A stretch of 64,000 bases of DNA from an uncultured Spirochaetota bacterium. Lineage in GTDB: Bacteria > Spirochaetota > UBA4802 > UBA5550. The notes under the pieces were generated by a model that saw nothing but the letters and a program-made list of their open reading frames with translations, was not told the DNA's origin and did not search any database. The position numbers and the translations under genes are program-made. Location: positions 7,007 through 71,006 of the forward strand of contig CALMRZ010000065.1 of NCBI GenBank assembly GCA_937872225.1, read 5' to 3'. Below are positions 1-14,128 of this stretch, one piece after another (the stretch's first letter is position 1; the number at the start of each line of letters is the position of its first letter).

Positions 1-826
1 GCTGAAAAATGCTTCGTAGTATTCATCATATTTTACTATTCTTGCATCCTGTAGAGCGGCGGTCATATCTTCAATTTTAGGCAGTATCCATTGATCGAAT
101 TTTATCTTCACGTTATATATTTTTTCCGAGGGTGAACGGAGCCCGTATTTCCCGATAAACGCTCCACTTATTGATTTCTTCAAAATATAATCAGGTGTGA
201 TTATTTTTTCATTGAATGTTTCATTCATTATCTCGATGTCCTTGATTTTGCTTAAAATAAAGTAATTTGCTTCTCCGGAGTCGGTAGGTTTTCCGTACAA
301 ATAGAAATTGTCATTGGTGAGAATGATGAAATATGGATGCACAATGAATGATTCCTGCTCGTCACTGTAAGAGCGAGTATAGTTGAATTGAATTTTCTTT
401 TTTTCGATTCTTGCGAAGTGTATTGCGGTAAATATCCAGAGACATGATTCCGGAGTCCTTTTTACCAGGCTGGCTATGGCCCGTTTCCTGTGAAAGTCTT
501 CTGATGTAAAAATTGAATGGCTGAAGGAGATCTCCTCCAGTACTGTTCTGTGTATTTTATTTATTTCCCATTCACTCCTGCCCTGCCCTATTGAAACAAG
601 GCCTCTAGATTTCAAAAACGTCCTGGCGTTTTTGGCCACAGCAGCAGGGTTAGGTGAAAAATCTTTAGATTCAGCATAGTCGCCGAACAGTGATTTATCT
701 TTCCAAAGGGTGTTGGTAATATTCTGTGCATTCCACTTGCTATTAGCACTGTTATTTTGCAGAAGGCCGAGAATATGTAGGCATCTCTTGAAGATGTTTA
801 TTTTTATATTGTAAACATTAGTCATG
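1..826 (-). CDS. WYL-domain transcriptional regulator (HTH-WYL-WCX type), partial; ATG at 824-826, 3' end runs past the window start
   Basis: Own minus-strand translation; absent from the ORF track because there is no stop in the window. It reads MTNVYNIKINIFKRCLHILGLL...SFIVHPYFIILTNDNFYLYGKPTDSGEANYFILSKIKDIEIMNETF...EKIYNVKIKFDQWILPKIEDM. The central aromatic-YL-hydrophobic motif followed by an FxLSKI strand matches the WYL signature, and the C-terminal part looks like a WCX domain. The sequence is AT-rich. Confidence 0.5.
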
Positions 827-872
827 ATACACCCCCCGCTTCTATATTCTCAAAAATACACGAAACAATCAT

Positions 873-894
873 TCTACTTATAACTTTAAGTTAG
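873..894. promoter_or_regulatory. Nested palindrome ATAACTTTAAGTTAGAAGTTAT (inner AACTTtAAGTT) about 45 bp upstream of the WYL regulator start; candidate autoregulatory operator
   Basis: Inverted repeat read directly in the sequence, lying between the WYL start at 826 and the end of the DnaA-like gene at 942. Confidence 0.3.
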
Positions 895-941
895 AAGTTA
901 TGATGTATATTTCAACTGAATAATTTTGATCTTGGATGAAT

Positions 942-1529
942 TTATTGTATTTCTATAATTTGGCCCCGATTGATACGGGATTTAAGCTTTTTGTTGAAAC
1001 TTGTATATTTTTTTGGATGAAATAATCCTGAAACAACAATCATTTTGCCCTTATTATACAAGTCGTTAATGACATGACATACTTCAGTCTGAGTCTCTTC
1101 TTTATCCGTCAAATCGTCAAAATCATCAAGTAACAACATATCAAGATTAAAGTATTGATTAACAAAATCGTCCCCCGTCCTTTCCCTAATCGATTGGATG
1201 AAATCATGTACGAATTTGTAAGTTGGTATGTATATGATTCTATTCTTAGGAATTTCATTGATTAATGCATGATATGTGGAAATGAGCAAATGTGTTTTCC
1301 CTGAACCAGTCCTCCCATATAAATACATTATATTTGGTCCGGTCCATGAATTAGAAGCTAATTGGGAGCACATCTTGAACGCCTTTTTATTTCCTGGTCT
1401 TACATCAAATGTTTTAAAATTATAAATATTATTAAATTGTATTCTATTCGTTTTCATTGAATCAGCCCAATTGACTATTGAGGATAATATTGATACTAAT
1501 TTGAAATCAATAAAATGCATGTGACTCAA
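942..1529 (-). CDS. Stand-alone DnaA/Hda-like AAA+ ATPase (DnaA domain III only, no DNA-binding domain IV)
   Basis: Walker A is LYGRTGSGKTHLL and Walker B is LLLDDFDDL. The spacing and the C-terminal GKMIVVSG...LKSRINRGQIIEI resemble the sensor/box region of DnaA domain III and Hda. The protein is 195 aa and AT-rich. Confidence 0.6.
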   Translation of the reverse strand: MSHMHFIDFKLVSILSSIVNWADSMKTNRIQFNNIYNFKTFDVRPGNKKAFKMCSQLASNSWTGPNIMYLYGRTGSGKTHLLISTYHALINEIPKNRIIYIPTYKFVHDFIQSIRERTGDDFVNQYFNLDMLLLDDFDDLTDKEETQTEVCHVINDLYNKGKMIVVSGLFHPKKYTSFNKKLKSRINRGQIIEIQ

Positions 1530-1563
1530 AGTTAGATGTAATTAGAAAATAAATTAATATATT

Positions 1564-1669
1564 TGACATAACAATGTCAATAATGCATTCTAATATTTAA
1601 ATAATATTTTAAAGAGTTGGAGCCTTAATATTAAAAAGTAAAATTCATTGAGATAAAACAATAGTCTCA
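1564..1669. promoter_or_regulatory. Divergent promoter region with two palindromes: TTGACAtaacaaTGTCAA (1564-1580) and TGAGAtaaaacaatagTCTCA (1649-1669)
   Basis: Inverted repeats read directly. They lie between the minus-strand ATPase gene and the plus-strand 1672 gene, and the first includes a TTGACA -35-like hexamer. Confidence 0.25.
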
Positions 1670-1671
1670 AT

Positions 1672-2295
1672 TTGAGGTATTATATGTATTCTGATAAAAT
1701 AAAACTGCTTCCATGGGAAGGCTCAAATTATTTAGAACAAAATCCTAAAATACTAATTCTTGGCTTATCAATTTATGATAAGAAAAAAAGTAAACATGTT
1801 GTACAAGAATATATTGAGGGTTTAATAAATGATGACTGGAACTACCCATTCTTTACAAAAATTCAAAATATATTTTCTAATCCAAATCATTGGGATGAAA
1901 TTACACCAGAAAGATATGCCCTTAATAAAAAGCTCTTCTGGGATGATGTATGTTTTTATGAATATATTCAGGAACGAATGGACAATCCCAAACAGAAAGT
2001 ACCAGCAAAATATTGGGAAAACTCGAAAGGAGCATTCAAAGAAATATTGCAGAAACTTAAACCTGATATCGTAATTGCCTTAGGATACGAAATGTATATG
2101 AACTTACCTCAAGAAGGTTCAGAAGGGATTCTAATTAAGCATGGCAACAACATAATGGAGACATGGAAATATAATATTTCAGGTAACGATACTTATGTCT
2201 GCCAGGTTCAACATCCTTCTTCGGTTGGTTTTAAACAAGATATATGGATAAAGCTATTTGAAGTTTTTTTAAAAAAATTTAGTAAATTGAAATAA
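1672..2295 (+). CDS. Hypothetical protein, possibly a UDG-fold (uracil-DNA glycosylase superfamily-like) protein lacking the canonical GEAPG motif
   Basis: A beta-strand-like KILILGLSIYD lies near the N-terminus, DIVIALGYEMY sits mid-protein, and QVQHPSSVGF lies near the C-terminus. Spacing and order resemble UDG family motifs 1 and 2 (HPS). This is a weak call from pattern only. Confidence 0.35.
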   Translation: MRYYMYSDKIKLLPWEGSNYLEQNPKILILGLSIYDKKKSKHVVQEYIEGLINDDWNYPFFTKIQNIFSNPNHWDEITPERYALNKKLFWDDVCFYEYIQERMDNPKQKVPAKYWENSKGAFKEILQKLKPDIVIALGYEMYMNLPQEGSEGILIKHGNNIMETWKYNISGNDTYVCQVQHPSSVGFKQDIWIKLFEVFLKKFSKLK

Positions 2296-2369
2296 TACAA
2301 GAGTAACTAGCTCATAGAGCAATAAAACACACTTTAATTTTATATTTTATAATTTATCATGGAGGGCTT

Positions 2370-2621
2370 ATGGGAAATTATTATTGCGAATATTGCGGGG
2401 CAAAAGATACGAATATTCATCATTTAACATCTGGCCCATGCCAATATCATCCCAATGGCCCACTCAAAGGGAATCATAAACTTTATGAAGGAAGTGAAAA
2501 AACAAAATATTTTTGTAAATATTGTGGTGCCTCAGATCCCAGTCTCCATCATTTAACATCTGGTCCATGCCAAAAACACCCCAAAGGGGCTTTAAAGGGT
2601 TACCATTCTCCGGCATTATAA
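2370..2621 (+). CDS. Small protein with two tandem ~38-aa Cys/His repeats (C-x2-C-x9-HH-x5-C-x2-H), putative zinc-binding
   Basis: The two repeats are YCEYCGAKDTNIHHLTSGPCQYHPNGPLKGNH and FCKYCGASDPSLHHLTSGPCQKHPKGALKGYH. A GGAGG-like RBS (ggaggg) lies 6 nt upstream of the ATG. Confidence 0.5.
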   Translation: MGNYYCEYCGAKDTNIHHLTSGPCQYHPNGPLKGNHKLYEGSEKTKYFCKYCGASDPSLHHLTSGPCQKHPKGALKGYHSPAL

Positions 2622-2694
2622 AGTTTCAAAGGTACTGTCGTCGGATCCTGTCTTATGGACCCCAGTGAAGGGAGATGATAAGAAAAGACTTCAA

Positions 2695-3009
2695 TTATTG
2701 ATCGTATCCTGCCGTTAATAGCCACTCACCGCTTTGAAGATGAGTAAACATTTGTCCTTTTCTAGGACCCATCGTACAATCATATTTAATAAAACATCTG
2801 GAACAGATGCAGCCCCATGCATTCTTTTCACCATCCAGGCATGCGTCCAGCATAAGCCGTTTATTATTGAACGAAGCTCCGCACAGATCGCATGAATGGG
2901 AGTGTCCGGCGAAAATGATCTCTTCTTCTTGTAGAAGATTCTCATGCGCTATAAGTTGAAGCTCGAATTCATCCTGGGGCTCACAGAAAGGTGTATATGT
3001 TTTCATCAT
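2695..3009 (-). CDS. Cys-rich hypothetical protein (104 aa)
   Basis: The ORF carries multiple C-x2-C pairs (HSHSCDLCG, CICSRC); I could not assign a family. Confidence 0.4.
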   Translation of the reverse strand: MMKTYTPFCEPQDEFELQLIAHENLLQEEEIIFAGHSHSCDLCGASFNNKRLMLDACLDGEKNAWGCICSRCFIKYDCTMGPRKGQMFTHLQSGEWLLTAGYDQ

Positions 3010-3091
3010 ACCATCAATTCTCCTTAAACAACTAGCTTAATAGAAAGTATAGAATGTACCATGACAAATAGTGTCACATCGCATTAATTTT

Positions 3092-3544
3092 TCATCTGGA
3101 AGATCCCTTCACAAGAAAACGATCAAGCTGATTGGCGAAAGCCTGGCGGTCTTTCTGTCTGAAAGAGGAAGGCCCGCCCGTGTCCATTCCGCTGTTCCTG
3201 AGAAGGTCCATTAAATCGCGCGTGGCAAGGCGGTCCTTGATGTTTTCCGGTGTATAAAGATCGCCCCGGGGATTGAGCACGAAACCGCCTTTGGCGATCA
3301 CACGGTCCGCAAGGGGCAAATCAGCGGAAATGACAAGGTCATTAACCTCCACCATTTCAACAATGCGGTCATCCGCCACGTCAGGACCGGCCGAAACTTC
3401 AATACATGAAATATACGCCGAGCCCGGTACGATCAGGCACTGATTTGCAACAAGCACAAGGGGAACATGAACGCGCTCGGCCGCACGATACAGTATTTCT
3501 TTTACAACGACCGGGCATGAATCCGCATCCACAAGTATCCGCAT
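3092..3544 (-). CDS. YaiI/UPF0178 (DUF188) family protein
   Basis: The N-terminus [13 protein letters not shown] matches the characteristic MxIWVDADACP start of the YaiI family. GC-rich, unlike its neighbours. TAATG overlap with the upstream RNase H gene. Confidence 0.7.
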
Positions 3545-4110
3545 TAAACGCCTCTTTTAATCTCTTCCATCCATGATCGGAGGGCCTTCCTGACTTCCCT
3601 GTCGACGATGGAAAATATCCGATGAACAGTGTCATGCGAGGCGACACGGGAATGCCCCTCGACCTTGATAACGTTCATGTTCAGTTCATCATATAATGAA
3701 TATAATTTCCGGTATAATGACGCGTTCTTTATCTCGGTTTTTGTTTTCTTGCTGATGTAATTCTTGTTCTCCAGTCCGGATCTTCTTCGCGATAAATCCG
3801 CGACGCATTGGGAATCCGTGTACACTGACAATTCCCAATGGCGGGAACCGGTTGCTTTTTGATAATCCTCGAGCGCCCATACAATCGTACGAATTTCCAT
3901 TTGAGTTGAACCGGCGCCCGTACATCTGCGCAGCACCAACCGCCCGATTATATCCGCTTTATCAATACTGTCGGGACCGGCTTCCAGGAGCGCGGCAGGC
4001 AGAAAAAGATATCCCCCAACGCCGCGCTTGAGTTGTGAATTCACGCTTGCATCCGTGAAAAGAACATCACCTCTCACCAGAGAGTTTTCTTTCTTAGCCA
4101 TTTCAATCAC
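3544..4110 (-). CDS. RNase H (type 1) domain protein
   Basis: DEDD-type motifs in order: TDAS (Asp), [10 protein letters not shown] (Glu), YTDSQ (Asp), KVEGHS...HD. 188 aa. Translationally coupled to yaiI. Confidence 0.65.
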
Positions 4111-4516
4111 CCGTAAATGTAAACCATATCAAACAATTCTATTATATAATATTCAATGTCAATTACATCTTGATTTCAGAGCGATAATGAGAACCCGCGG
4201 GAAGCGGGATTCTTACTTCTGTCATTTACAAGTGGATTTCTGCCCCGCCTCCACTCTGATCAAGCATTGGCAGCATTTCACCTATTGCCGGAGAAGAGCA
4301 AAGTGTTGCGGATTTTTAAAACACGACCGTTGTGAAGTATAAATGACAATTCAAAATGATTTTTCGAAAAAGTGTAAAATTAAGCTAATTTATTAAAACC
4401 TCGAAATACTAATAAAATATAGCCATTGGGTTCTAGGCATCACCCTGACTCAATGGCAAGCGATAGAAGATGATTTTGAATATATCTTCTAAAATTTTAT
4501 TTTAAGGAGGTTTCTT

Positions 4517-4789
4517 ATGAAACCCTATAAATCAATTTTTAATACCAGCAGCAATACTCGACGATTTACCAGAGTATCAAGGCATCACAAACAACGCGAA
4601 AGTATGAATAGAAAACCAATCATACCGCCGAGATATATTCCACTAACGGAACGTCTCGGTGAGCAAGTAGAAGAAAAGCACGTTACTCCGGTTGTACAAA
4701 ATGTCTTTGTTTTCAATTTTAATGGCGGAGAAAACATTGAGGATGTACTAACCGGAATTCTGAAGTGTATTAAACAGGCAGCACTTTGA
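4517..4789 (+). CDS. Hypothetical protein (90 aa)
   Basis: A strong RBS AAGGAGG lies 7 nt upstream of the ATG, and the terminator hairpin follows. AT-rich. Confidence 0.5.
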   Translation: MKPYKSIFNTSSNTRRFTRVSRHHKQRESMNRKPIIPPRYIPLTERLGEQVEEKHVTPVVQNVFVFNFNGGENIEDVLTGILKCIKQAAL

Positions 4790-4796
4790 TGAAAAC

Positions 4797-4846
4797 TAGA
4801 ACTAAGATTTCAGGCAATTACAGTATTTCTGAAATCTTAGTTCTTT
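4797..4846 (+). terminator. Rho-independent terminator-like hairpin
   Basis: A 14-bp perfect stem AACTAAGATTTCAG/CTGAAATCTTAGTT with a 15-nt loop, followed by TTTATAATTTT. Confidence 0.5.
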
Positions 4847-4912
4847 ATAATTTTCCAAAGAGAATATCTCTAAGGATTACTAATAATTAAACAACTCTGG
4901 GAGGAAGATACC

Positions 4913-5710
4913 ATGTCCGGAATGAGTATTGATGATCGAACCTTAGTCAGATTCTTTTATAAATCAAAAAAGAATTTTATGGCTGAGATGCAGGGGAAAA
5001 TGAAACCTGAACTAATGGATCAAGCTATTAATATGTTTTTTTCACCTAAAAGAAAGAAGTTTACTGACCAGGAGAAAGAGGAGCGAAAAAGACGTATTTT
5101 GAACCAAGTTAGTCGGATAAATCGGGAATTTGGCATAAGTAAAAATTCCATAAAGATAAACCAAAAATCCCAAGACCAAGTTGACCTGCTTGTACGAGAA
5201 TCAGAGTTTTCAAAGAACAGGAAAGACAAACTCAGAATCTTTTTAATAGAATTAATTCGCTGGCGAAAATATTTTGAGAGTCTTACCTACGAACAGCTGA
5301 GGGCCATGGAGGGGATATACTGGGACGTTACAGTTCATGCCCTTAATGGTCTCACTCCCCTGCCATCAACCCTTTTAGGTCGCTGGGTATCCGGTGATGT
5401 GCCAGCAAGAAAGCCTGCTGATGCGTTTATGAACGATATCATAGCAAAAATAAAAAATGAAGATAAGAAGTTATTATTCATGGACGCCTATTACCTTGAT
5501 AAAACCGGAAAAAAGTATGTCCTTAAAAAGTCTGTTACAGAAGAACAAAAATCTGAGATGCGAAAAATCATGAACGAAATCAGTTATAGCAATAAAAGCG
5601 GTACAAAATATATCGATTTCCTAAAATACCTGATTGATAAAAAGGTAGTTGAGTTAAAAGTCCAATATTCAACGCTTGGGAAATGCAAATACTATAAAAT
5701 TAATATATAA
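4913..5710 (+). CDS. Hypothetical protein (265 aa), Lys/Glu-rich
   Basis: A GGGAGGAAG RBS precedes the ATG. No recognisable motif. AT-rich. Confidence 0.5.
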   Translation: MSGMSIDDRTLVRFFYKSKKNFMAEMQGKMKPELMDQAINMFFSPKRKKFTDQEKEERKRRILNQVSRINREFGISKNSIKINQKSQDQVDLLVRESEFSKNRKDKLRIFLIELIRWRKYFESLTYEQLRAMEGIYWDVTVHALNGLTPLPSTLLGRWVSGDVPARKPADAFMNDIIAKIKNEDKKLLFMDAYYLDKTGKKYVLKKSVTEEQKSEMRKIMNEISYSNKSGTKYIDFLKYLIDKKVVELKVQYSTLGKCKYYKINI

Positions 5711-5805
5711 TCTATACATAACTGCATAAATGTATTTATTTCTGGGGAAACATAATTGGAGAAAAAACAGCATTTTCAATACCCCAGAATTCTAAATGCC
5801 CACTT

Positions 5806-6002
5806 CCACCATCCAGATCATGAAATCCAGTAGGATATCATCAATCAATTGGTTCGAATACTGTCTTCCCGTGGGAGCATGGGCGCTTTTTCGAACTCCG
5901 GGAAGCGCCTTTTTATTTTCCGACCATTGTTGTTGCAATTATTGACAAAATGGTCGGTTCGGATAATGTCTTCCCGCAGCATTACGATAAGACTCGAACT
6001 CC
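5806..6002. repeat. Conserved intergenic repeat, copy 1 (~197 bp): 3' conserved block, terminator hairpin GGGCGCTTTTTCGAACTCCGGGAAGCGCC+T-run, then TTGACA-16-TAATGT promoter
   Basis: About 90% identical to 6705-6902. Contains an internal direct repeat GGTTCG(A/G)ATA(A/C)TGTCTTCCCG. The promoter elements are at 5942-5969. Confidence 0.7.
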
Positions 6003-6081
6003 ACAAACTACACTTAGAATAATTTATAGAAATCAAGATTTTTCTCTTGATTATTGTAACCCATTGGGTTACATTAATTTT

Positions 6082-6360
6082 GTGATAAAGAGTTTTAAAC
6101 ACAAAGGGCTGGAACAATTCTTTGATACTGGCAGCAAAAAAGGAATCCAGCCCGACCATGCATCGAAACTCGAACGTATTCTGGACAGGCTGGCAGCTGC
6201 CAAAAAACCGAAAGACATGAACCTGCCAGGTTATAAATTACATGTGTTATCCGGCAATAAGGCCGGTACCTGGGCAGTGAGCATCAGCGGTAATTGGAGA
6301 GTGACATTTAAATTTGAAGGTGAAGATGTGATAGTCGTTGATTATATTGACTATCATTGA
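6082..6360 (+). CDS. higB: HigB toxin (RelE/ParE superfamily mRNA interferase), GTG start
   Basis: (V)IKSFKHKGLEQFF...GNWRVTFKFEGEDVIVVDYIDYH aligns end-to-end with HigB (MIKSFKHKGL...ANWRITFQF...YEDYH). The ORF-track start at 5950 reads through the repeat and is rejected. Confidence 0.85.
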   Translation: MIKSFKHKGLEQFFDTGSKKGIQPDHASKLERILDRLAAAKKPKDMNLPGYKLHVLSGNKAGTWAVSISGNWRVTFKFEGEDVIVVDYIDYH

Positions 6361-6380
6361 AATCAACAAGGATTAACATC

Positions 6381-6680
6381 ATGAATATAACAAAAAGAAA
6401 ACCTGTGCATCCGGGGATCGTACTTCTTGAAGACGTGATAAAACCCCTCAATCTGACAATTACCAAGGCGTCTGAATGTATGGGTATATCCAGAAAAACA
6501 CTTTCAGAATTGGTGCATGGCCATTGTACGCTGACCCCCGAAATGGCCGTGCGGATTGGCGAAGCCACAGGTACCACCCCGGAAAGCTGGCTGGAAATGC
6601 AAAACAGGCTTTCTCTATGGGAAGCCAAACAGCATAAACCCCGAGTCAAACCATTGGCTGATATGTGTTGTGAAGCATGA
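6381..6680 (+). CDS. higA: HigA antitoxin (XRE-family HTH)
   Basis: PVHPGIVLLEDVIKPLNLTITKASECMGISRKTLSELVHGHCTLTPEMAVRIG...WLEMQNRLSLWEA matches HigA. An AGGA RBS lies 7 nt upstream of the ATG at 6381. The ORF-track start at 6357 is a TTG overlapping the higB stop. Confidence 0.85.
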   Translation: MNITKRKPVHPGIVLLEDVIKPLNLTITKASECMGISRKTLSELVHGHCTLTPEMAVRIGEATGTTPESWLEMQNRLSLWEAKQHKPRVKPLADMCCEA

Positions 6681-6704
6681 TAGATTTTAATCCTGTTTAC
6701 TGCC

Positions 6705-6902
6705 CCACCATCCAGATCATGAAATCCAGCAGGATATAATCAATCAGCTGGTTCGAATACTGTCTTCCCGTGGGAGCATGAGGCGCTTTTCGAAATCCGG
6801 GAAGCGCCTTTTTTATTTTCCGACCATTATTGTAGCGATTATTGACAAAATGGTTGGTTCGAATACTGTCTTCCCGCTGCATTACGATAAGACCCGAACT
6901 CC
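6705..6902. repeat. Conserved intergenic repeat, copy 2 (~198 bp): terminator hairpin GGCGCTTTTCGAAATCCGGGAAGCGCC+T-run, then TTGACA-16-TACTGT promoter
   Basis: Begins 25 bp after the higA stop. Promoter at 6842-6869, about 115 nt upstream of the mqsR ATG, the same spacing as copy 1 to the higB GTG. Confidence 0.7.
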
Positions 6903-6983
6903 CTTAAAGGCATTCATATCAATCATTTTTCTATTGACCATTCTGTATATTTTTAATATATTGACATTGTAAAGATATTATAA

Positions 6984-7286
6984 ATGGATAAATTTAAGGC
7001 ACATTATTCGCTGTTGCGGGTTAAGGCCCTGGTCAAAGAGGGCCGATATCGAATTACCGCTGCAGCTATTAAAAGCGGTTTTGAGGATTTTTCACTATTA
7101 TCAGAAGATCTTGCCGAATGTGAGCTCAGGCTTGAAGCATCGGACTTATACAAGTCAATGACGAGCCGTTTTGATGCAACCTTGTAGCAGGACGTTTATC
7201 ATACAAGGATTATTACCAAAATAGCCTATATTAAACTGCAAATTCTTGATGATGAAACGGTGATAATCTCATTCAAGGAGAAATGA
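6984..7286 (+). pseudogene. mqsR: mqsR toxin homologue interrupted by an in-frame TAG at 7185-7187 (conserved Trp codon TGG->TAG)
   Basis: MDKFKAHYSLLRVKALVKEGRYRITAAAIKSG...SDLYKSMTSRFDATL*QDVYHTRIITKIAYIKLQILDDETVIISFKEK matches MqsR, with the stop where MqsR has TIWQDVY. The reading frame continues intact to a TGA overlapping the mqsA ATG. Confidence 0.75.
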
Positions 7287-7287
7287 C

Positions 7288-7713
7288 ATGAAAGAAAAAA
7301 AATGGGTTGATTGCCCTTCCTGCGGGTCTAAAGGAACCATGAAATACAAAAAAGGCATGTCGGAAACATACCGCAACCCCGGATATGAACCGATAACCGT
7401 GACCAACCTTGACGGATATTTCTGCTCTGCCTGCGGTGAAGGGATATACAGCATTAAATCGAGTAAAATCATAACATCGAAGCTGACTGATGAAAAAGCG
7501 CGCCAGGACTCAAAACGGGTCGTCGCCTCTGACCTCATTGATGTTGATTCGGTTGCGAAGAAACTTTCGGTTACCAGGCAGCGAGTGCACCAGATGATGG
7601 ATGAAGGTAAAATATCATATGTGTATGTCGGGAAGCACAGATTCCCAGTCAGGGATAATGAAAGCTCGTATAAGAAGTTAAAGAAAAGAATACATACGAT
7701 AGCACATAATTGA
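7288..7713 (+). CDS. mqsA: MqsA-like antitoxin (N-terminal zinc-ribbon CPSCG...CSACG plus C-terminal XRE HTH)
   Basis: The zinc-ribbon plus HTH domain order matches MqsA, and the start overlaps the mqsR frame end (TGACATG). Confidence 0.75.
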   Translation: MKEKKWVDCPSCGSKGTMKYKKGMSETYRNPGYEPITVTNLDGYFCSACGEGIYSIKSSKIITSKLTDEKARQDSKRVVASDLIDVDSVAKKLSVTRQRVHQMMDEGKISYVYVGKHRFPVRDNESSYKKLKKRIHTIAHN

Positions 7714-7726
7714 TTATTTTATACTT

Positions 7727-7840
7727 CCACCGCCCAAATTATAAAATCCAGCAGGATATCATCCAAGAGCTGGTTCGATAACTGTACTCCCTTGGGAGCA
7801 GAATAGGACGTTTTAGAACTCACGGTAACGTGCTTTTTGT
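7727..7840. repeat. Conserved intergenic repeat, copy 3 (partial, more diverged): left block plus terminator-like hairpin GGACGTTTtagaactcacggtAACGTG + T-run
   Basis: Begins 14 bp after the mqsA stop. Shares AAATCCAGCAGGATAT..TGGTTCGA.A.CTGT..CCC.TGGGAGCA with copies 1 and 2 and lacks the promoter half. Confidence 0.55.
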
Positions 7841-8069
7841 TTATATGGGAACGCTTCGTGGTTCCGGTAAGGGCGGGATCATTATCCGTCAGCCCAGCTC
7901 CCGGTTGAATTTCTATCTGCTCATTCATGGCCATTATAGGCTCTTTCATCAAAAAGATGTAAGGCTTTTTCCATTGGATTCCCACAGTCTCTTTATTGAC
8001 AGCGATGCGCTCAGTCTTCTCATTTATTATCCGGGACTTTTTATCGTAATCAGCCGACGGCGGCGCACC

Positions 8070-10850
8070 CTACCGGGGATGCAGTACCATCAGGCATTTT
8101 ATTGTCAACTGATCCGGGAAATAATCATTCCTTGCCGCCCATTCATTGCGCGATTTTTCCACCCATCGGTCGAGCTCAAACGGCTCCATGTAATCGAGAC
8201 AGGTGTCCTCATCCGGTGCAGACCTGATGACCTGCATTATTTCATCCACATGATTGCTGTTAAGAACAATCCCCCCCTGTCTGTTAAAAATTGCGGGATA
8301 CAGTCTCGATTTGCTTGAAAATAAAACATACAAGCTCACGTCTTTTACTGCCGCCTGTTTAAAGCTCCTGATTCCGTCGGGAAGCCTTCTGTATTTTTTC
8401 AGCTCATGGTCCTGGAGGCCCGCCAGGTCATCAATGAAATTACTGGTGCTCAGATGGTCGGCATTTTCTATAAACCGCATGACCTCGTCGAGTTCAAGGT
8501 CCGCGTCGCCAAAATTATGCATGCATCGCGCAAGCTCGGTCATCTCGAAGGCCTCGCCTTTTTCCTCCACCATTACCGGGATGTCGGTGAAAGACCGCAT
8601 CTCCCTGTTTTTGGCCACAAGTCGGTTCTGCCAGTTAAGGGCGTGATGGATATCGCGATTGCCCATCGTTGACGGAATGAGATTGTACACGTATATCTCC
8701 CTCGGCACCTTCCATGGCCGCAGTATTCTTCCCATTCGCTGCGCCAGCACCAGGACGGTCCACGGCAGATCGAAATTGATCATTACCGAGGCGTCCTGGA
8801 AGTTGAACCCTTCGGACATGGCCGTGGTCGCCACGAGAATATCGATGGCACTCTCGTCGGTCTCCGCTCCATCGTCATCGCCCTGTATGTCAATGCTGTT
8901 GGCGACAGGGGCGAATCTCCTTATCAATTCCTCAATGTCTTCACTTTTATCCACGGTGTGCGCCACGGACTTCCCGGGAACAAGCCTTCCAATAATTTCG
9001 GTGATGTATTTGGCAGTCTCAATATAAAAGCAAAATATCACAATTTTCTTATCAACATGGGTTTTGACAATATCCATCAACCTGGCGATCTTATCCTCGA
9101 TGGCGGATGAATGTGCGGGATCGATATACGGAGCGATTTCCAGGCGCATCTCCGATGTTACCTGTGTAAGTTTGTCCTGGTTTTCAAAACGCATCTTCCT
9201 GAACCCCTCCTCCCTTTCCATCTTCGCGAGGAGTTCATCGGCCTGTTTCATGGAGGAGCAGAACTGGTGAACGACCCTCGCTTCGAAAAGCGGGTCGCGG
9301 TCGCCCGAGAGATAATCTTCGAAAAGAGAACCGTTGTCTTCATTGGCCGATCTGCGGTTGAGGAGCCCGCTTTTAAGAAGCCTTACCATCATGCCGTCGC
9401 ATTCGTTTCGGTATTCCATGTTCTTCATGTGTATGACCCTCGGGAAATACCTTTTCTGGTCGCCCGAGAAGAGGACAAAGCGCTCGTTCGCCGGATCCCT
9501 GTAGCTGAAGTGGGTCACCACCGTGGGCGATGTGAGGACTACTCCGGGGGAAATTTCCGAAAGCTCTCCGGCATTGATCACTTGCCAGGGGATGCCATGG
9601 TTTTCTCCCATGAGCGTTTTTTCCGTTCCACGAGGAGGAAGCAGGGCCAGCTGGTTATTGATATCATCAATTCCCCTGCTGTAGGGGGTCGCTGTCATGA
9701 GCAGCACTTTGGCCTGCTTGCTCACGGCGTCGATTATCCTTCTGTTGCGCAGCCGTATTTCGTTGCCTTCTTGGGAATTCCTCAAGTGGTGGCTCTCGTC
9801 AAGTATAATGATGGTTTTACCGTTCGCCCTTCGGAGTTCCCCCTCGAGCTCGGCGATATCACGGTAGTGCCGCCAATCCTCGACCGAAAGAATGTAATAT
9901 GAGAATTCGATGCTTGACAGGCGTGCAGCGCGCATCGTTCGCTGCCACATTCGTTTCAGCCCCGCTGGACACAAAACAATAGCTGCATCTATCTGGTTCT
10001 TCATCCGTAAGTATGCAACGGCATGAGCCGCCATAATGGTCTTTCCAAGGCCGGTGGAAGCCACAAGCATCGCGCCCCCGAATTCCTCGATATTACGAAG
10101 AATACGCGAGACCACAGGACGCTGATACCCTGCCAGCTGAGGCAACGTGCCCGTCTCTTCGTCGTCGGGAAGTCCGTACAGTTCGATGAGTGAACGAATA
10201 TATACATCAAAGGGTCGGTAAATTTTGAGCCATTCATCAAGACGATCGAGCAGCTCTTCGGCGATGCAGACGGCCTTATCGTAATAATAATCGAACTTTT
10301 CAACAAAAAATAAAACATCGTCGGTATCATAAATTGCAATACCCGCTTCACGGCTCGCAACAAGTCCATGCCTGGTAAAATTGGCCGAGGTGACCACGGC
10401 GGCCCGCTCATCGGCGATGTACAGCTTGGCGTGATGATATATATAGCGCGGGTCCATTGAGGTAGGGCCCTCATTGACCGAAACATTGACCAGGAACCTG
10501 CGGCTCCTGACAGCATCGCGAAGCTCCTCCATCGCTCTTGTCCTGTCATCTAATGGGGTCGTGGCGAGCGATTCAAAAAATTCCGAGATTACCTCGCTTA
10601 TCCTGTCTGCGCCCGTGTCCGGACGGCCCAACAGGAGCCTGACTTCCTTGCCTCGAAGCACCTCCCTGAGGCACTCATATCCCGCCGGCTCGAAATAGGC
10701 TGTTGCGATACGCACAACCGACGCGTCTTCAATCGTAGACCGTATAACGCGTAATGCCGCGCCCCCTCCTGAAAAGAAACGGGATAAGGATGCATTATTA
10801 TTTTGAGGAATATTCATAGTTCTATTTGCCCTGTGCATCTTTGTTGTCAA
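8070..10850 (-). CDS. Phospholipase-D-family (HKD) nuclease fused to an SNF2-family helicase (926 aa), with a ~200-aa C-terminal tail of unknown function
   Basis: N-terminal HxK-x4-D motif HHAKLYIADERAAVVTSANFT. SNF2_N features: QRPVVSRIL..MLVASTGLGKTIMAA (Walker A), ILDESHHLRN (DExH), LLMTATP. Helicase-C features: VATTAMSEGFNFQDASVMINFDLPW..QRMGRILR. Ends in TAG. GC-rich. Confidence 0.8.
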   Translation of the reverse strand: MTTKMHRANRTMNIPQNNNASLSRFFSGGGAALRVIRSTIEDASVVRIATAYFEPAGYECLREVLRGKEVRLLLGRPDTGADRISEVISEFFESLATTPLDDRTRAMEELRDAVRSRRFLVNVSVNEGPTSMDPRYIYHHAKLYIADERAAVVTSANFTRHGLVASREAGIAIYDTDDVLFFVEKFDYYYDKAVCIAEELLDRLDEWLKIYRPFDVYIRSLIELYGLPDDEETGTLPQLAGYQRPVVSRILRNIEEFGGAMLVASTGLGKTIMAAHAVAYLRMKNQIDAAIVLCPAGLKRMWQRTMRAARLSSIEFSYYILSVEDWRHYRDIAELEGELRRANGKTIIILDESHHLRNSQEGNEIRLRNRRIIDAVSKQAKVLLMTATPYSRGIDDINNQLALLPPRGTEKTLMGENHGIPWQVINAGELSEISPGVVLTSPTVVTHFSYRDPANERFVLFSGDQKRYFPRVIHMKNMEYRNECDGMMVRLLKSGLLNRRSANEDNGSLFEDYLSGDRDPLFEARVVHQFCSSMKQADELLAKMEREEGFRKMRFENQDKLTQVTSEMRLEIAPYIDPAHSSAIEDKIARLMDIVKTHVDKKIVIFCFYIETAKYITEIIGRLVPGKSVAHTVDKSEDIEELIRRFAPVANSIDIQGDDDGAETDESAIDILVATTAMSEGFNFQDASVMINFDLPWTVLVLAQRMGRILRPWKVPREIYVYNLIPSTMGNRDIHHALNWQNRLVAKNREMRSFTDIPVMVEEKGEAFEMTELARCMHNFGDADLELDEVMRFIENADHLSTSNFIDDLAGLQDHELKKYRRLPDGIRSFKQAAVKDVSLYVLFSSKSRLYPAIFNRQGGIVLNSNHVDEIMQVIRSAPDEDTCLDYMEPFELDRWVEKSRNEWAARNDYFPDQLTIKCLMVLHPR

Positions 10851-11093
10851 GAATTATCCTTATCAAGCGATTCCAGCAATAAGACCGATACCTCTTTTCC
10901 ACGGGAAGCTTAATAAGTTCCGGGCATTCTGTGGATACGGAGAGAAAATGAGAATTACATAACAGTACTTACCCAAAGCACATGCCTCGCCCTGGCATGA
11001 CCCACGTAGAGCAATTCCTCAGCAAGGAAGCGCGCCTTTTCTCCAGGGCCCGTTTGCAGAAGACACACTGTTTTTCAGACATGTTCCGATCTT

Positions 11094-12755
11094 CTATTCA
11101 TGCAAGAGTTGTTCCATCTCCGTGAGTTTATGCTTGACTTCATCAATACGGCCGGCGGTATCGGGGGTTCGCTCCATGAGGGATTCAACTAATTTAAGCT
11201 CGTTGTTGACATACAAGAGGGTCTGCTCCATCATGCGGTCCATTTCCCTGTAAATCTTCCCCGTTAAGTCCGAAACAAGGCGGTGGATATTTTTGTCCAC
11301 TTCACCGGGGATCTGACCGGCGAAAAAACGGGCGAAAATCTTCCTGAAGATAAACATGGGGAACAGGAACCAGAACATGTCGAGATGGAAATCAAAAGCC
11401 CTGCTTATTGAGATATCCGGTCGGCGTATATCGAACACAAGTTCTCCCCATTCTTCGGAATGCATGGAAATTCCGAGAGACTTGCTTATGTTTTCATTAA
11501 GCCGCTGGCGGAAAGACTTGAGATAAAAAGACAAGTGCTTCTTTGCGCCGGTTATAATATACGAGGAACGATCCTCTTCCAACAACAGCTTTTTTATTTC
11601 CGATGAGAGGGAATCTTTTATCCATGCTTCATATTGTTTCGTAAACGAGTAAAGCGTGCCTTTCCACCCGGGAAATGATTGTAAAAAATCAGCGGTCAGT
11701 CTCTCTATAATGGGTTTAATATACTCCTTCATATATTCGAACAGCGTCTCACGCGTTTCGTTTTTATAGCTGTCAAGAATGAACAGAAGTTCACGGCGGA
11801 CATAGTGGGCGTTCATATGCTCTTCAAAGACGGCCTTTTTGAGTTTTTCAAGCTCGCCGCGTTCGACCTTGGATGCCTGTCTCGCAATTTCAAGGTATGA
11901 AATACATGATTTTATCAGCGTGGATGCCTTATGGCGCACGATAGTATTGCGAACTTCGTCAACACGAACAAGCAGAGGACCAATGATCGAGGTTTCAATT
12001 TTATCAACATGCTTCCGCGTGTCCTTAACGGTAGAAAAGGGACACAGGGGAAACGAGCGCTCAAGGTTTGTATTTAACGCGTTTTCCGTAAAAGATACAA
12101 TATCCGCAACCTGCTTTTCAGAATACAGGTCAATCTTTGTAATTATTATATAAACTTCCGGGGAATAACGGAGGACATCCTCCAAGAGACGCATTTCGAC
12201 CTCTGAAATCGGACGTTCGGCGCTCATCACGAAAAGAACGGCGCCAGTCTCGGGAAACCAGCCAAGGGCCGTTTCAGTGTTGTGCTTCCATACGCTCCCG
12301 ATCCCGGGCGTATCGATGAGCCGGGCGCCGCCCCATTTTCTGAGTTCCGTGAGCTCGACATCGACTATGGCCACACCCTTCTCGTTTTCAGGATTGCCGG
12401 ATTCGGATACATATTCGTCGAGATCTTCAATTGTTGTTTCACGCACGCCGCCGCCGTTGAAGGTCACGAGCGCACGGTTGTTTTCCCCCGGAGAAAGCCT
12501 GGTAATGACTGACGTCACGGGAATACTGCCCACGGGAAGGACCGCCGTTCCGGTGAGGGCGTTCAGGAACGAACTCTTGCCGGCTTTGAATTGTCCGAGA
12601 ACGGCTATGTCGAGGTAACGCTGTTCGTTGACGAAACGCAGCACGGAACCGGCGACCTTTTCAATGCTTTGAAGGTTAAATTCAGTGCTTACAGCTTCAA
12701 CGACATGAATCGCGCTTATTGCGCGTTCGCGTAAAGAAACCGCATTTTCAATCAT
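11094..12755 (-). CDS. Dynamin-family large GTPase (bacterial dynamin-like / LeoA-like)
   Basis: G1 P-loop GQFKAGKSSFLNALTG, G3 DTPG, G4 TKID. The rest is long helical stalk-like sequence. A GGAGG RBS and 13-nt gap couple it to the upstream small membrane gene. Confidence 0.8.
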   Translation of the reverse strand: MIENAVSLRERAISAIHVVEAVSTEFNLQSIEKVAGSVLRFVNEQRYLDIAVLGQFKAGKSSFLNALTGTAVLPVGSIPVTSVITRLSPGENNRALVTFNGGGVRETTIEDLDEYVSESGNPENEKGVAIVDVELTELRKWGGARLIDTPGIGSVWKHNTETALGWFPETGAVLFVMSAERPISEVEMRLLEDVLRYSPEVYIIITKIDLYSEKQVADIVSFTENALNTNLERSFPLCPFSTVKDTRKHVDKIETSIIGPLLVRVDEVRNTIVRHKASTLIKSCISYLEIARQASKVERGELEKLKKAVFEEHMNAHYVRRELLFILDSYKNETRETLFEYMKEYIKPIIERLTADFLQSFPGWKGTLYSFTKQYEAWIKDSLSSEIKKLLLEEDRSSYIITGAKKHLSFYLKSFRQRLNENISKSLGISMHSEEWGELVFDIRRPDISISRAFDFHLDMFWFLFPMFIFRKIFARFFAGQIPGEVDKNIHRLVSDLTGKIYREMDRMMEQTLLYVNNELKLVESLMERTPDTAGRIDEVKHKLTEMEQLLHE

Positions 12756-12768
12756 GTTTATGACCTCC

Positions 12769-12987
12769 TTATTGCCCTCTGAATAGAAACAACGCGACCC
12801 CCGAGCAGATGATCGCCATGATAAAGGCCAATACGGCCATTTCTACGGCAAAAGCGGTTTTCTTTTTTCTGCTTATTCCCGGAAAATGACTCCAGCCGCT
12901 GTAAGCATTCATAAATGCCATGACTGACCCAATTATGCCGAAAGGGACGGCGAGAATCACGATTGCAAATATGACCCGCTTGTCCAT
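12769..12987 (-). CDS. Small two-helix membrane protein (72 aa), first gene of the dynamin / PLD-SNF2 module
   Basis: Two hydrophobic segments (VIFAIVILAVPFGIIGSVMAF and FAVEMAVLAFIMAIICSGVALFLF) separated by a basic loop. Confidence 0.5.
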   Translation of the reverse strand: MDKRVIFAIVILAVPFGIIGSVMAFMNAYSGWSHFPGISRKKKTAFAVEMAVLAFIMAIICSGVALFLFRGQ

Positions 12988-13104
12988 GTGCGCATCCTCA
13001 TTGCTTCAGCTTGGTCGCGAACACGGCTGATGCGCCGAGTTCACGCTCTATTTCAAGGAGACGGCTGTATTGTGCGATCAGCTCGCTCCCGCAGGCCGAT
13101 CCAG

Positions 13105-13365
13105 TCATGGTCTGTCCGCCTCACATAATGTGGTCAAAGCCCCGAGAAAGCCGGTAACGAAAAAAAGACGAAAGGACGGATTTATCATGTTTTTTTCGCT
13201 GGCGAGAGAGAATATCGAGTTTATCAAAAAACAGCCGGAAAGATTTACGAACAATGCGCCTATGGGGAAACGATCGGTGAATAATTTGTCGGCCAGCAAT
13301 GAGATTAAATAACGGGAAACCGCCCCGATGCTACCTCCAGCCGCTACGAAAAGTATCTTTTCCAA
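13105..13365 (-). pseudogene. crcB: crcB (FluC fluoride channel) remnant: N-terminal 86 codons only; all three frames hit stops where the last ~40 residues should be
   Basis: (M)EKILFVAAGGSIGAVSRYLIS...FPIGALFVNLSGCFLI...VTGFLGALTT matches FluC through TM3 and then ...LCEADRP*. TTG start with a GGAGGAG RBS. Sits directly downstream of a fluoride riboswitch. Confidence 0.6.
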
Positions 13366-13398
13366 ATCTCCTCCATAAATATATATCCATAGTATTCA

Positions 13399-13450
13399 TG
13401 CAGGAGTCATCAGCCATCGGGCAGTTAACGGTGAACTCCATCACCTTTGG
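13399..13450 (-). ncRNA. Fluoride riboswitch (crcB RNA motif) aptamer
   Basis: The minus strand reads AAAGGUGAUGGAGUUCACCGUUAACUGCCCGAUGGCUGAUGACUCCUGCA, containing GGnGAUGGnGUUCnCC, AACUGCC and CUGAUGAnUCCUnC of the consensus. The 3' CUCCUGCAU can pair with the downstream AUGGAGGAG covering the RBS, a translational ON-switch design. Confidence 0.7.
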
Positions 13451-13540
13451 CACGGTGATCATTACATATTCAGGTTAACACAAAAACATAATAGACATTT
13501 ATATGTCAAGAACATATTCATTACGTGACCACTGTTTGCA

Positions 13541-14128
13541 TTAAGACTCTTCGATACGTTGTTTCACCATCACTAGTGCCTTTAATCGTCCGTCAGCCAT
13601 ACGGACTTCTTCGGGCATCTCCATACTCAGCGCCATTTCTTCCATAATTTCACAAATGGATTCATTTTTCATATCAACCAGAATATCCTCAATGTCCTGC
13701 CGCAGGTGCCATGGGGCATTTATTATTTCAATCATCCGGTTCACGATGGTACTGCGATCTGCACTTGAAGCAAAGGCCCTGCCGATCGGATGTCTGTGCA
13801 TGTGACTTTTCTTTTCCCTCTCGGTTTCAGGCCAGGACCTGACTGAGCCGGCAATTGACGACTTGACCCCCGCAAGAAAAAACAGGAATACCGGCATTAT
13901 CTCGCCCCGGGCGTCGATCAGCATTTTCCCGGCGACAGCGATGATCTCTCGCCCCTCATAGCCTATTACCGGTCCGACGAAAACATAAAAGACCCGAACC
14001 TTTACGCCCGGTTCACGCTCACCACAACGAAAATTTATGCGATACTGGGCCACAAGACCGACCGCATCTTCGCCGGTGTCAAACCCCTGCTGGAGCATTC
14101 GATCTATGCGGCCTGGAGGTCCTACCAA
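13541..14128 (-). CDS. Hypothetical protein (up to 195 aa; start uncertain)
   Basis: ORF on the minus strand with moderate GC. No motif recognised. Competes with antisense ORFs. Confidence 0.35.
   Translation of the reverse strand: MVGPPGRIDRMLQQGFDTGEDAVGLVAQYRINFRCGEREPGVKVRVFYVFVGPVIGYEGREIIAVAGKMLIDARGEIMPVFLFFLAGVKSSIAGSVRSWPETEREKKSHMHRHPIGRAFASSADRSTIVNRMIEIINAPWHLRQDIEDILVDMKNESICEIMEEMALSMEMPEEVRMADGRLKALVMVKQRIEES

Follow-up and report, generated by a model that had tools for sequence, protein, structure and literature searches.

Near the left end of a 64,000-nucleotide stretch of DNA from an uncultured Spirochaetota bacterium (NCBI GenBank assembly GCA_937872225.1, contig CALMRZ010000065.1, positions 7,007 to 71,006 of the forward strand; hereafter the window), two toxin-antitoxin (TA) gene pairs, higBA and mqsRA, stand among three copies of a repeat of about 200 bp. 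This layout raises the question of what the repeat is and how the TA genes came to lie between its copies. The original prediction, made from the DNA sequence alone, proposed an integron-like cassette array punctuated by a repeat that carries a terminator and a promoter. Based on sequence comparison and homology, it is highly probable that the repeats are serine-recombinase junctions, and there is good reason to believe that each ~200-bp copy is the junction between elements that a large serine recombinase (LSR) has serially integrated at the 3′ terminus of a tRNA-Asn(GTT) gene. The sequence comparison supports this through occupied and empty sites, the identity of the recombinase, the homology of its C-terminal tail, the geometry of the attachment (att) sites and the varying content of the arrays; from these we infer that recombination itself takes place. 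The further proposal, that the TA units of ~1 kb are cis-mobilizable cassettes and depend on a recombinase acting in trans for their movement, is evenly balanced.

Copies of the repeat in the window

The copies were located by repeat finding and MAFFT alignment, and later by a profile built from 23 copies of several genomes. They occupy 5806-6002 (copy 1), 6705-6902 (copy 2) and 7727-7840 (copy 3), exactly as first described. Copies 1 and 2 share 83-89% identity across ~198 nt, and copy 3 is, as had been noted, partial and more diverged, with 61% identity over the first 114 nt only. Run against the 64-kb window, the 23-copy profile matched these three copies together with two short internal partials (5954-5981 and 6853-6881) and found no copy elsewhere; because of these partial matches, the internal direct repeat reported earlier can be taken as real. 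The copies start 96, 25 and 14 nt past the stop codons of a 265-aa gene, higA and mqsA, respectively, in keeping with the earlier statement that they lie shortly 3′ of gene stops. The GC-rich hairpin with a T-run that had been described in copies 1 and 2 was recovered by a terminator scan at 5881-5910 and 6780-6810, and the predicted structures would terminate the upstream operons. Copy 1 has a further hairpin at 5920-5957.

No terminal inverted repeats and no long inverted repeat spanning the element were found. Rfam and ARAGORN, run on the window, identified neither an RNA family nor a tRNA at the repeat and matched only a fluoride riboswitch elsewhere, and BLAST with the repeat against plasmid and phage collections gave no match. 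Two further readings of the repeat were tried and rejected, namely a pseudo-tRNA, prompted by the T-loop likeness of GGTTCGAAT, as the block has no tRNA fold, and plus-strand coding, as copy 2 contains an early stop.

The tRNA-Asn target in island-free and island-bearing strains

The strain comparison used metagenome and metagenome-assembled genome (MAG) contigs that encode the exact HigA protein, and covered ten strains of the window species. From higB rightwards the HigA-bearing contigs are constant, and to the left they vary. At four of the loci (L004, L005, L009 and L010) the island is absent, and nadA with an intact tRNA-Asn(GTT) gene stands directly at this position. ARAGORN placed this tRNA gene at locus positions 9425-9498, equivalent to window 5805-5878, which is the place of the 5′ block of copy 1. 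Past the tRNA gene, sequence of the L004 type is identical to the window from 5880 on, the identity beginning at a shared GGGAGCA. In L001-L003 and L006-L008 the 5′ block stands in place of the tRNA gene, with three distinct island variants to its left. Because the 5′ block replaces the tRNA gene in island-bearing strains, copy 1 is interpreted as the right junction of an insertion into the tRNA-Asn 3′ end. A wholly empty attB, in which the tRNA gene is followed by native sequence only, was not found in close relatives.

The large serine recombinase and its alternative C-terminal tails

A fetch based on NadA yielded three loci that have the window flank (L011, L012 and, later, L101); in the first two, NadA is 100% identical. 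In L011 and L101, nadA and tRNA-Asn are followed, instead of by higBA, by an open reading frame (ORF) on the opposite strand, of 565 aa in L011 and 549 aa in L101, the 3′ end of which overlaps the tRNA-Asn gene by 63 nt in antisense. L012 extends only 2.4 kb beyond the tRNA gene, and its DNA matches the same recombinase 3′ end. Resolvase and Recombinase domains and a PHROG 'integrase' match characterize this ORF, which in L011 (3915-5612) matches PF00239 Resolvase (1.5e-19), PF07508 Recombinase (2e-11) and phrog_95 'integrase' (1e-71), and on account of these two domains and the PHROG match it is assigned as an LSR. An LSR with both domains adjoins tRNA-Asn at one island end (L011), and the window itself holds only a 3′ fragment of 88 codons (7719-7985, minus strand), whose residues line up one by one with the last ~60 of the LSRs. 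A homologue search with this 88-aa ORF returned only itself, and its identity came from the strain comparison instead. When L004, which lacks the large island, the left junction (L011) and the right junction (window copy 1) are compared three ways, the switch between sequences falls inside GGGAGCA.

Just upstream of the tRNA-proximal LSR gene lies a second full-length LSR gene (524 aa). The tandem genes occupy 2014-3588 and 3915-5612 in L011 and 2912-4486 and 4865-6514 in L101, an arrangement that recalls ccrA/ccrB and dsiA/dsiB. Orthology of either LSR with Ccr or XisF was considered and rejected, the NCBIfam scores falling far below the CcrA, CcrB, CcrC and XisF cut-offs. Alleles of the tRNA-proximal LSR differ by 23% between island variants of one species.

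The LSRs have a common C-terminal stretch, GIQWKKPYIFLMKEP...TGTTKRSH.NKK.V.VSSKTSY.AP, and their tails split after ...AP. Integrated-form proteins (P0002, P0003, P0004 and P0008) have the tail PVGLEPTTQWLTATCSTD, which is the antisense reading of tRNA-Asn. The minus strand of the 5′ block of the repeat encodes an alternative C-terminal tail of the recombinase, ...SNQLIDDILLDFMIWMVE, and because it does so attP is placed inside the 3′ end of the recombinase gene. Past the switch point, copy 3 encodes KGVQLSNQLLDDILLDFIIWAVEV, and copies 1 and 2 encode an equivalent tail. The pattern of this attP-form tail, L..DD.LLD...W, is present in copies 1-3 and in P0009 and P0013. The latter two are distant homologues with related tails, P0009 ending in ...LKLLDTSLMNVIIWFKE and not adjoining a tRNA gene, and P0013 ending in ...IKDLLLDWRLWLV. 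Before the switch point P0010 is almost the same as P0009, and it ends in tRNA-Trp antisense. Where the part of attP to the left of the switch, the P arm, was collected, its frame was open in all 23 cases (20 unique; nine sources). The exchange would concern the last ~20-25 residues, with a conserved, predicted amphipathic tail in one form and the tRNA-antisense tail in the other.

More distant recombinases of this kind were also seen. In L104, a related recombinase (10001-11614; 51-53% identity) overlaps tRNA-Trp(CCA) (11552-11625) by the same 63 nt. A near-twin of it in L102 (283-1896) has the attP form, and immediately after it come a 72-aa gene and a PIN-domain gene (2163-2815), a vapBC-like pair; since this pair directly follows an attP-form recombinase, TA pairs beside the P arm appear to recur in the element family. 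In L103, the locus of a recombinase with 67% identity, a profile search found no right-end P arm.

Structure and geometry of the probable junctions

In the proposed mechanism, attP would lie within the 3′ end of the recombinase gene, with the crossover inside GGGAGCA. To the left of the crossover, the minus strand of the P arm would encode the recombinase's own C-terminal tail; to the right, the P′ arm would encode the preceding part of the recombinase, and its plus strand would double as the tRNA terminator hairpin. Integration would fuse the recombinase gene to the tRNA antisense, giving the new tail ...PVGLEPTTQWLTATCSTD, and would leave the P arm at the element's far end. Repeated integration at the tRNA-proximal site would stack elements, each internal junction then consisting of a P arm, the crossover and a P′ arm. 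On this model copy 1 would join the P arm of the large island, across the crossover, to the P′ arm of the higBA unit; copy 2 would likewise join the P arm of the higBA unit to the P′ arm of the mqsRA unit, and copy 3 the P arm of the mqsRA unit to the P′ arm of an older element that keeps 88 recombinase codons. The TA mini-elements, once inserted, would be retained through their addictive cargo.

In copy 1, the putative P arm (5795-5879, minus strand) comprises the last ~28 recombinase codons in the excised (attP) form, ending in ...APTGRQYSNQLIDDILLDFMIWMVEVGI and a stop, and contains GGTTCGAAT at 5851-5859 and GGGAGCA at 5873-5879; its portion from 5806 to 5879 takes the place of tRNA-Asn in island-free strains. 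It is followed by a P′ remnant (5880-5955, plus strand), homologous to the recombinase 3′ coding region in L011, which holds the hairpins of 5881-5910 and 5920-5957. The former also lies directly 3′ of the intact tRNA-Asn gene in L004, and the hairpin with its T-run is the predicted intrinsic terminator of tRNA-Asn, carried in the P′ arm. Next comes a short attP-like site, site 2 (5956-6002; GGTTCGGAT...CGCAGCA...CTCGAAC), which is the left boundary of the higBA cassette. In copy 2, the P arm (6705-6778, minus strand), ending in ...APTGRQYSNQLIDYILLDFMIWMVGQ and a stop, has GGTTCGAAT at 6750-6758 and GGGAGCA at 6772-6778; the P′ remnant and site 2 follow (6779-6902, plus strand), with the terminator hairpin at 6780-6810 and site 2 itself, the left boundary of the mqsRA cassette, at 6856-6902. 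To the right of the crossover, copies 1 and 2 are therefore alike in being composite, with a recombinase 3′ remnant of ~75 nt that includes the terminator and then site 2. Copy 3 (7719-8058, minus strand) has a P arm at 7727-7800 (GGGAGCA at 7794-7800) fused in frame to the 88-codon recombinase 3′ fragment, with a degenerate terminator hairpin at ~7806-7845, and blastn of 7794-8058 against the recombinase 3′ ends of L011, L012, L013 and L015 gave 84-91% identity. Between the junctions there is just one TA pair and no recombinase in each of the two units, higBA (5880-6778) and mqsRA (6779-7800), so that a mini-element is made up of a P′ half-site of ~25 nt, one TA pair and a P arm of ~75 nt.

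The spacing of motifs in these sites was compared with that in the tRNA gene. From GTTCGA to the end of AGCA the distance is 28 nt in the 20 P arms with both motifs in place (23 examined), as against 23 nt in tRNA-Asn, where GTTCGA is the T-loop motif. An inverted GTTCGA...TCGAAC pair spans 43-48 bp around GTGGGAG. In attP half-sites of serine integrases the zinc-ribbon-domain motif lies at positions 16-24, and in attB the motif is 5 bp nearer the centre (Rutherford et al., PMC3783163); the geometry of the left half-site appears to fit this 5-bp attP/attB rule. No convincing motif could be read in the native right (B′) half-sites, where a shifted motif was looked for in L092 and L094.

The composite structure of copies 1 and 2 bears on their regulatory content. 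In L093, P arms are fused straight to the right half of site 2, and the intervening 106 bp are missing; because it is absent from these arrays, the 106-bp piece is considered a separable, cargo-less unit, and because it holds the TTGACA motif, that motif is dispensable for the TA pairs. The promoter of the original prediction (TTGACA-16-TA(A/C)TGT) could not be upheld, as it fails a standard sigma-70 scan, with 3/6 matches in the -10 hexamer, and the L093 arrays keep the same TA pairs without the 106-bp segment. A better candidate for the mqsRA promoter lies at 6934-6962, outside the repeat. These observations are relevant to the view that the array arose by local tandem duplication of a terminator-promoter module, or that the repeat is a miniature inverted-repeat transposable element (MITE)-like element, in either case without a role in recombination. 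Hairpins with T-runs do follow the upstream operons and the TTGACA motif is present, but besides the failure of the promoter and the absence of its segment from L093, the 5′ block is recombinase coding sequence and a tRNA gene occupies its place in island-free strains. A MITE is further contradicted by the lack of terminal inverted repeats and by copies that are confined to tRNA-Asn-linked arrays and not dispersed, the 64-kb window having none beyond the array. Nor does a local triplication, the fallback named earlier, account for the same junction separating six TA types in varied order in at least five Spirochaetota species. We regard such a module or MITE as very improbable; a terminator role of the hairpin is compatible with serial integration by an LSR.

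The same evidence can be set against a sedentary chromosomal integron, in which the repeats would be unusual attC sites recombined by IntI as folded single strands. The gene-repeat-gene-repeat layout with TA cargo does resemble integron arrays, and this part of the original prediction stands; the element also folds more stably than shuffled sequence (z = -3.4 and -3.8). The integron mechanism fared differently. As had already been suspected, the canonical R″/R′ core sites (RYYYAAC/GTTRRRY) are absent from all three copies and their flanks on both strands. The predicted single-stranded DNA folds, examined for an attC-like structure, are multibranched with local hairpins on both strands and include no single long imperfect hairpin of the attC type. 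Phage_integrase, and with it any tyrosine recombinase such as IntI, is absent from the precomputed Pfam matches of called genes within 10 kb on either side in the ten strains. The head of the array is tRNA-Asn or a serine-recombinase island and not intI/attI, and the repeat is the 3′ end of a serine recombinase gene. An integron at this locus is considered extremely improbable.

TA arrays in related species

A 24-base P-arm pattern was found at six loci in five Spirochaetota MAG species and had no match in viral contigs; the metagenome loci L014, L019 and L020 also hold the junction. The arrays contain 1-4 junctions, 750-1020 bp apart, and lie beside tRNA-Asn wherever the tRNA gene falls within the fetched stretch. 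Each interval holds one TA pair, and six types can be told apart: higBA (A), mqsRA (B), a BrnT/DUF4258-like pair with a weak match below cut-off (C), mazEF (PemK/MazE; D), HepT/MNT (HepT/NTP_transf_2; E) and a HigB (PF09907)/HigA pair (HigB_toxin/HTH_3; F), with D and E oriented opposite to the other types. The order is A-B in the window and L093, tRNA-B-A-C in L014 and L096, tRNA-B in L019 and L020, D-E in L092 and tRNA-(GIY-YIG islet)-C-B-D-F in L095. The cassettes of types A, B, C and F have a common left half-site of ~25 nt, ending in ...CTCGAACTCC, after which cargo-specific DNA begins. The islet of L095 (3876-4316), which lies between tRNA-Asn and the first cassette, is ~350 bp long, encodes a 117-aa GIY-YIG protein and has a 24-nt repeat of the 3′ end of the tRNA on either side (3927-3950 and 4293-4316); it is a different small insertion at the same tRNA gene.

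Several points weigh against serial integration by an LSR, and in particular against cassettes moved in trans. Decay occurs in the array, as copy 3 shows with its 88-codon recombinase stump. Canonical serine integrases pair attP with attB only (PMC3783163), whereas the large island seems to have entered a site with a right half that was already P′-type (attL-like), and cassette shuffling would need recombination of attP-like with attP-like sites; therefore either the enzyme would have to be as relaxed in its choice of partner sites as CcrAB, or homologous recombination between the ~200-bp junctions would have played a part. The A-B array is identical in all ten strains of the window species and, because it is fixed in them, recent cassette movement is not evident; no circular forms were observed. 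Pairwise differences between P arms at codon positions 1/2/3 number 706/402/1111, a codon signal that is moderate, with a similar synonymous count in one antisense frame. Assemblies break inside the island, the left end and the window never being joined on one contig, and the window island is presumably linked to the recombinase end, through identical flanks and through L006 and L012 sharing one sample.

Decay in copy 3, the invariance of the array and the restriction of canonical LSRs are also what speaks for a rival account of the TA units, as does the vapBC-like pair of L102, which follows an attP-form full recombinase and would make TA genes normal right-end cargo. According to this account the units were never small mobile cassettes, being remnants of full-size recombinase islands after internal deletions, and the array is a fixed graveyard in which the addictive TA pair beside the P arm survived; differences in order would reflect independent acquisition or homologous recombination between junctions. 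However, the unrelated types A, B, C and F end at the same left base, which independent deletions would not produce, no cassette holds other island debris, and the same cassettes occur permuted and in both orientations across species. This common minimal left boundary, the permuted orders and the lack of debris favour cassettes moved in trans, and the remnant account is judged somewhat unlikely. A bolder version of the trans-mobilized cassettes, which we hold to be doubtful, is that a CcrAB-like LSR pair runs an integron-like cassette system at tRNA-Asn, with sub-kilobase TA cassettes excised and re-inserted tRNA-proximally. Such a system would need recombination between attP-like sites; its P arms would complete the recombinase frame upon composite excision, and the tail exchange would report the state of the element and help to set direction.

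Gene content of the window

The TA genes of the window match curated type II toxin-antitoxin families in Pfam, which confirmed the TA cargo first proposed. The pair higB (6082-6360, plus strand; HigB-like_toxin, 3.5e-21) and higA (6381-6680, plus strand; HTH_3, an HTH antitoxin) is the cargo of mini-element A, and mqsR (6984-7287, plus strand; MqsR_toxin) with mqsA (7288-7713, plus strand; MqsA_antitoxin) is that of mini-element B. The mqsR gene is not intact, as an in-frame TAG (7185-7187) stands in place of a conserved Trp codon. Read through the stop, the product is ..DATL*QDVYH.., and both the 33 codons past the TAG and mqsA are intact; full-length MqsR of 100 aa is encoded in the relatives L014, L020, L093 and L095. 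The sequence marks mqsR as a pseudogene in the window species, with the toxin inactivated and the antitoxin kept.

GC content is 33-43% over window 1-8000 and 50-60% elsewhere in the window. Positions 1-5805 are the right-hand part of a large, low-GC integrated island, 'Z', with genes for a DnaC-like loader, DUF188, RNase H and the 265-aa end protein. The 265-aa gene (4913-5710) is the final gene before the P arm in three island variants (the window type, L003 and L007); in L093 the equivalent place holds a gene for a 231-aa relative. The protein has no match in Pfam, PHROG or NCBIfam; encoded by a conserved gene of the end module, it is a candidate for an accessory or directionality factor. 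L097 and L098 extend ~10 kb to the left of the window start within the island, with ~24 kb more beyond, and a leftward walk with a window-encoded protein gained ~5.4 kb beyond L002 without reaching the left end. Over window 1-4110 and L097 10696-20579, the island encodes replication-type proteins (a DnaC-like helicase loader, a DNA polymerase III alpha fragment and a single-stranded DNA-binding protein, SSB) as well as a WYL regulator, an ankyrin-like protein, RNase H and DUF188. The 20 kb examined showed no phage structural genes, and for this reason the island resembles a replicative integrative element more than a prophage. An ORF of 83 aa at 2370-2621, rich in Cys and His, consists of two copies of a unit of ~43 aa with the motif YC.YCGA...HHLTSGPCQ.HP.G.LKG.H, the underlying DNA repeat (2375-2477 and 2504-2606) having 73% identity.

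To the right of copy 3, a segment of ~6 kb (7840-13780) is missing from the otherwise syntenic L014. It contains a PLD-SNF2 helicase gene (8070-10850, minus strand), a dynamin-like GTPase gene (~11094-12755, minus strand), small ORFs and crcB with a fluoride riboswitch (13394-13454, minus strand; Rfam, 59 bits), and the helicase and GTPase pair looks defence-like. With the recombinase stump at its start, the segment is possibly cargo of the older element, but right of copy 3 no right-end P arm was found for such an element.

Relationship to known systems

The closest precedent is provided by the ssrA islands of Dehalococcoides (DsiB/DsiA), in which a CcrB-like LSR gene invariably reaches across attL with its 3′ end, islands are found in tandem with ssrA 3′-end repeats between them, and fifteen integrase-less islands have been proposed to be cis-mobilizable (McMurdie et al. 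2011, PMC3146451). Both systems have an LSR gene and a second serine recombinase gene at attL, an LSR 3′ end that runs into a small-RNA gene or the next island, tandem stacking at the target gene and recombinase-less units. They differ in target, which is tRNA-Asn here (tRNA-Trp in a relative) and transfer-messenger RNA (tmRNA) there; in the second recombinase, which here is also a full-length LSR, of 524 aa; and in the recombinase-less units, which here are sub-kilobase and hold a single TA pair. The P arm here, of ~75 nt, has a tail conserved at the protein level, whereas DsiB ends were reported to be divergent, and the phylum here is Spirochaetota.

Staphylococcal cassette chromosome elements (SCCmec and pseudo-SCC), inserted at rlmH by CcrAB or CcrC, are similar in being LSR cassettes at the 3′ end of a conserved gene, in the LSR gene pair and in forming tandem composites, some of whose units have no recombinase and lie between repeated copies of the integration-site sequence. 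In contrast to these, the LSRs described here score far below the CcrA, CcrB and CcrC cut-offs and are not Ccr orthologues, the target is a tRNA gene, the cassettes measure ~1 kb and not tens of kb, and attP is located within the ORF of the recombinase. Accretion of cis-mobilizable elements (CIMEs; ICESt1/ICESt3-type) and tycheposon arrays at tRNA genes share with the present arrays the tandem accretion at one att site, att-flanked units without a recombinase, and degraded integrase fragments and partial tRNA repeats in the island; those systems, however, use tyrosine recombinases almost exclusively, and their units are multi-kb. Serine integrases were not known to target tRNA genes according to the TIGER paper (2020 survey).

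Chromosomal integrons with TA cassettes are comparable in their short single-operon units, in the conserved recombination site between them and in the variation of order and content among relatives, but IntI, attC cores and a single-strand hairpin substrate are all lacking here, and the recombinase family, site architecture and tRNA anchoring differ. SSV-type archaeal integrases (PMC7253208) and phages with integration-dependent immunity offer a parallel in that integration alters a frame spanning attP, giving two protein forms. Theirs are tyrosine recombinases, and integration splits the integrase gene or truncates a repressor, whereas the exchange here would be confined to the final ~20-25 residues of a serine recombinase. 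The general kind of system is thus already known; what is distinctive here is the tRNA target, the sub-kilobase TA-only units, the cargo-less 106-bp unit and the P-arm tail conserved at the protein level.

Implications

Through the comparison, a repeat that had lacked an explanation becomes a map of a genomic-island hotspot, with its attB (the tRNA-Asn 3′ end), attP arms and element boundaries; the elements so delimited are a large one, two mini-elements and a decayed one. It also gives an identity to minus-strand orphan ORFs of 48, 61 and 88 aa, which are recombinase tails. A family of serine recombinases appears to act at tRNA-Asn and tRNA-Trp genes, with the T-loop sequence as a putative distal recognition motif that shows the 5-bp attP/attB offset, and the natural att sites may be of use in the search for serine integrases suited to genome engineering. 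Through the conserved tail swap, the integrated form of the recombinase may be distinguishable from the excised one. If TA-only cassettes are indeed moved in trans, integron-like arrays would have arisen with a second, unrelated recombinase family.

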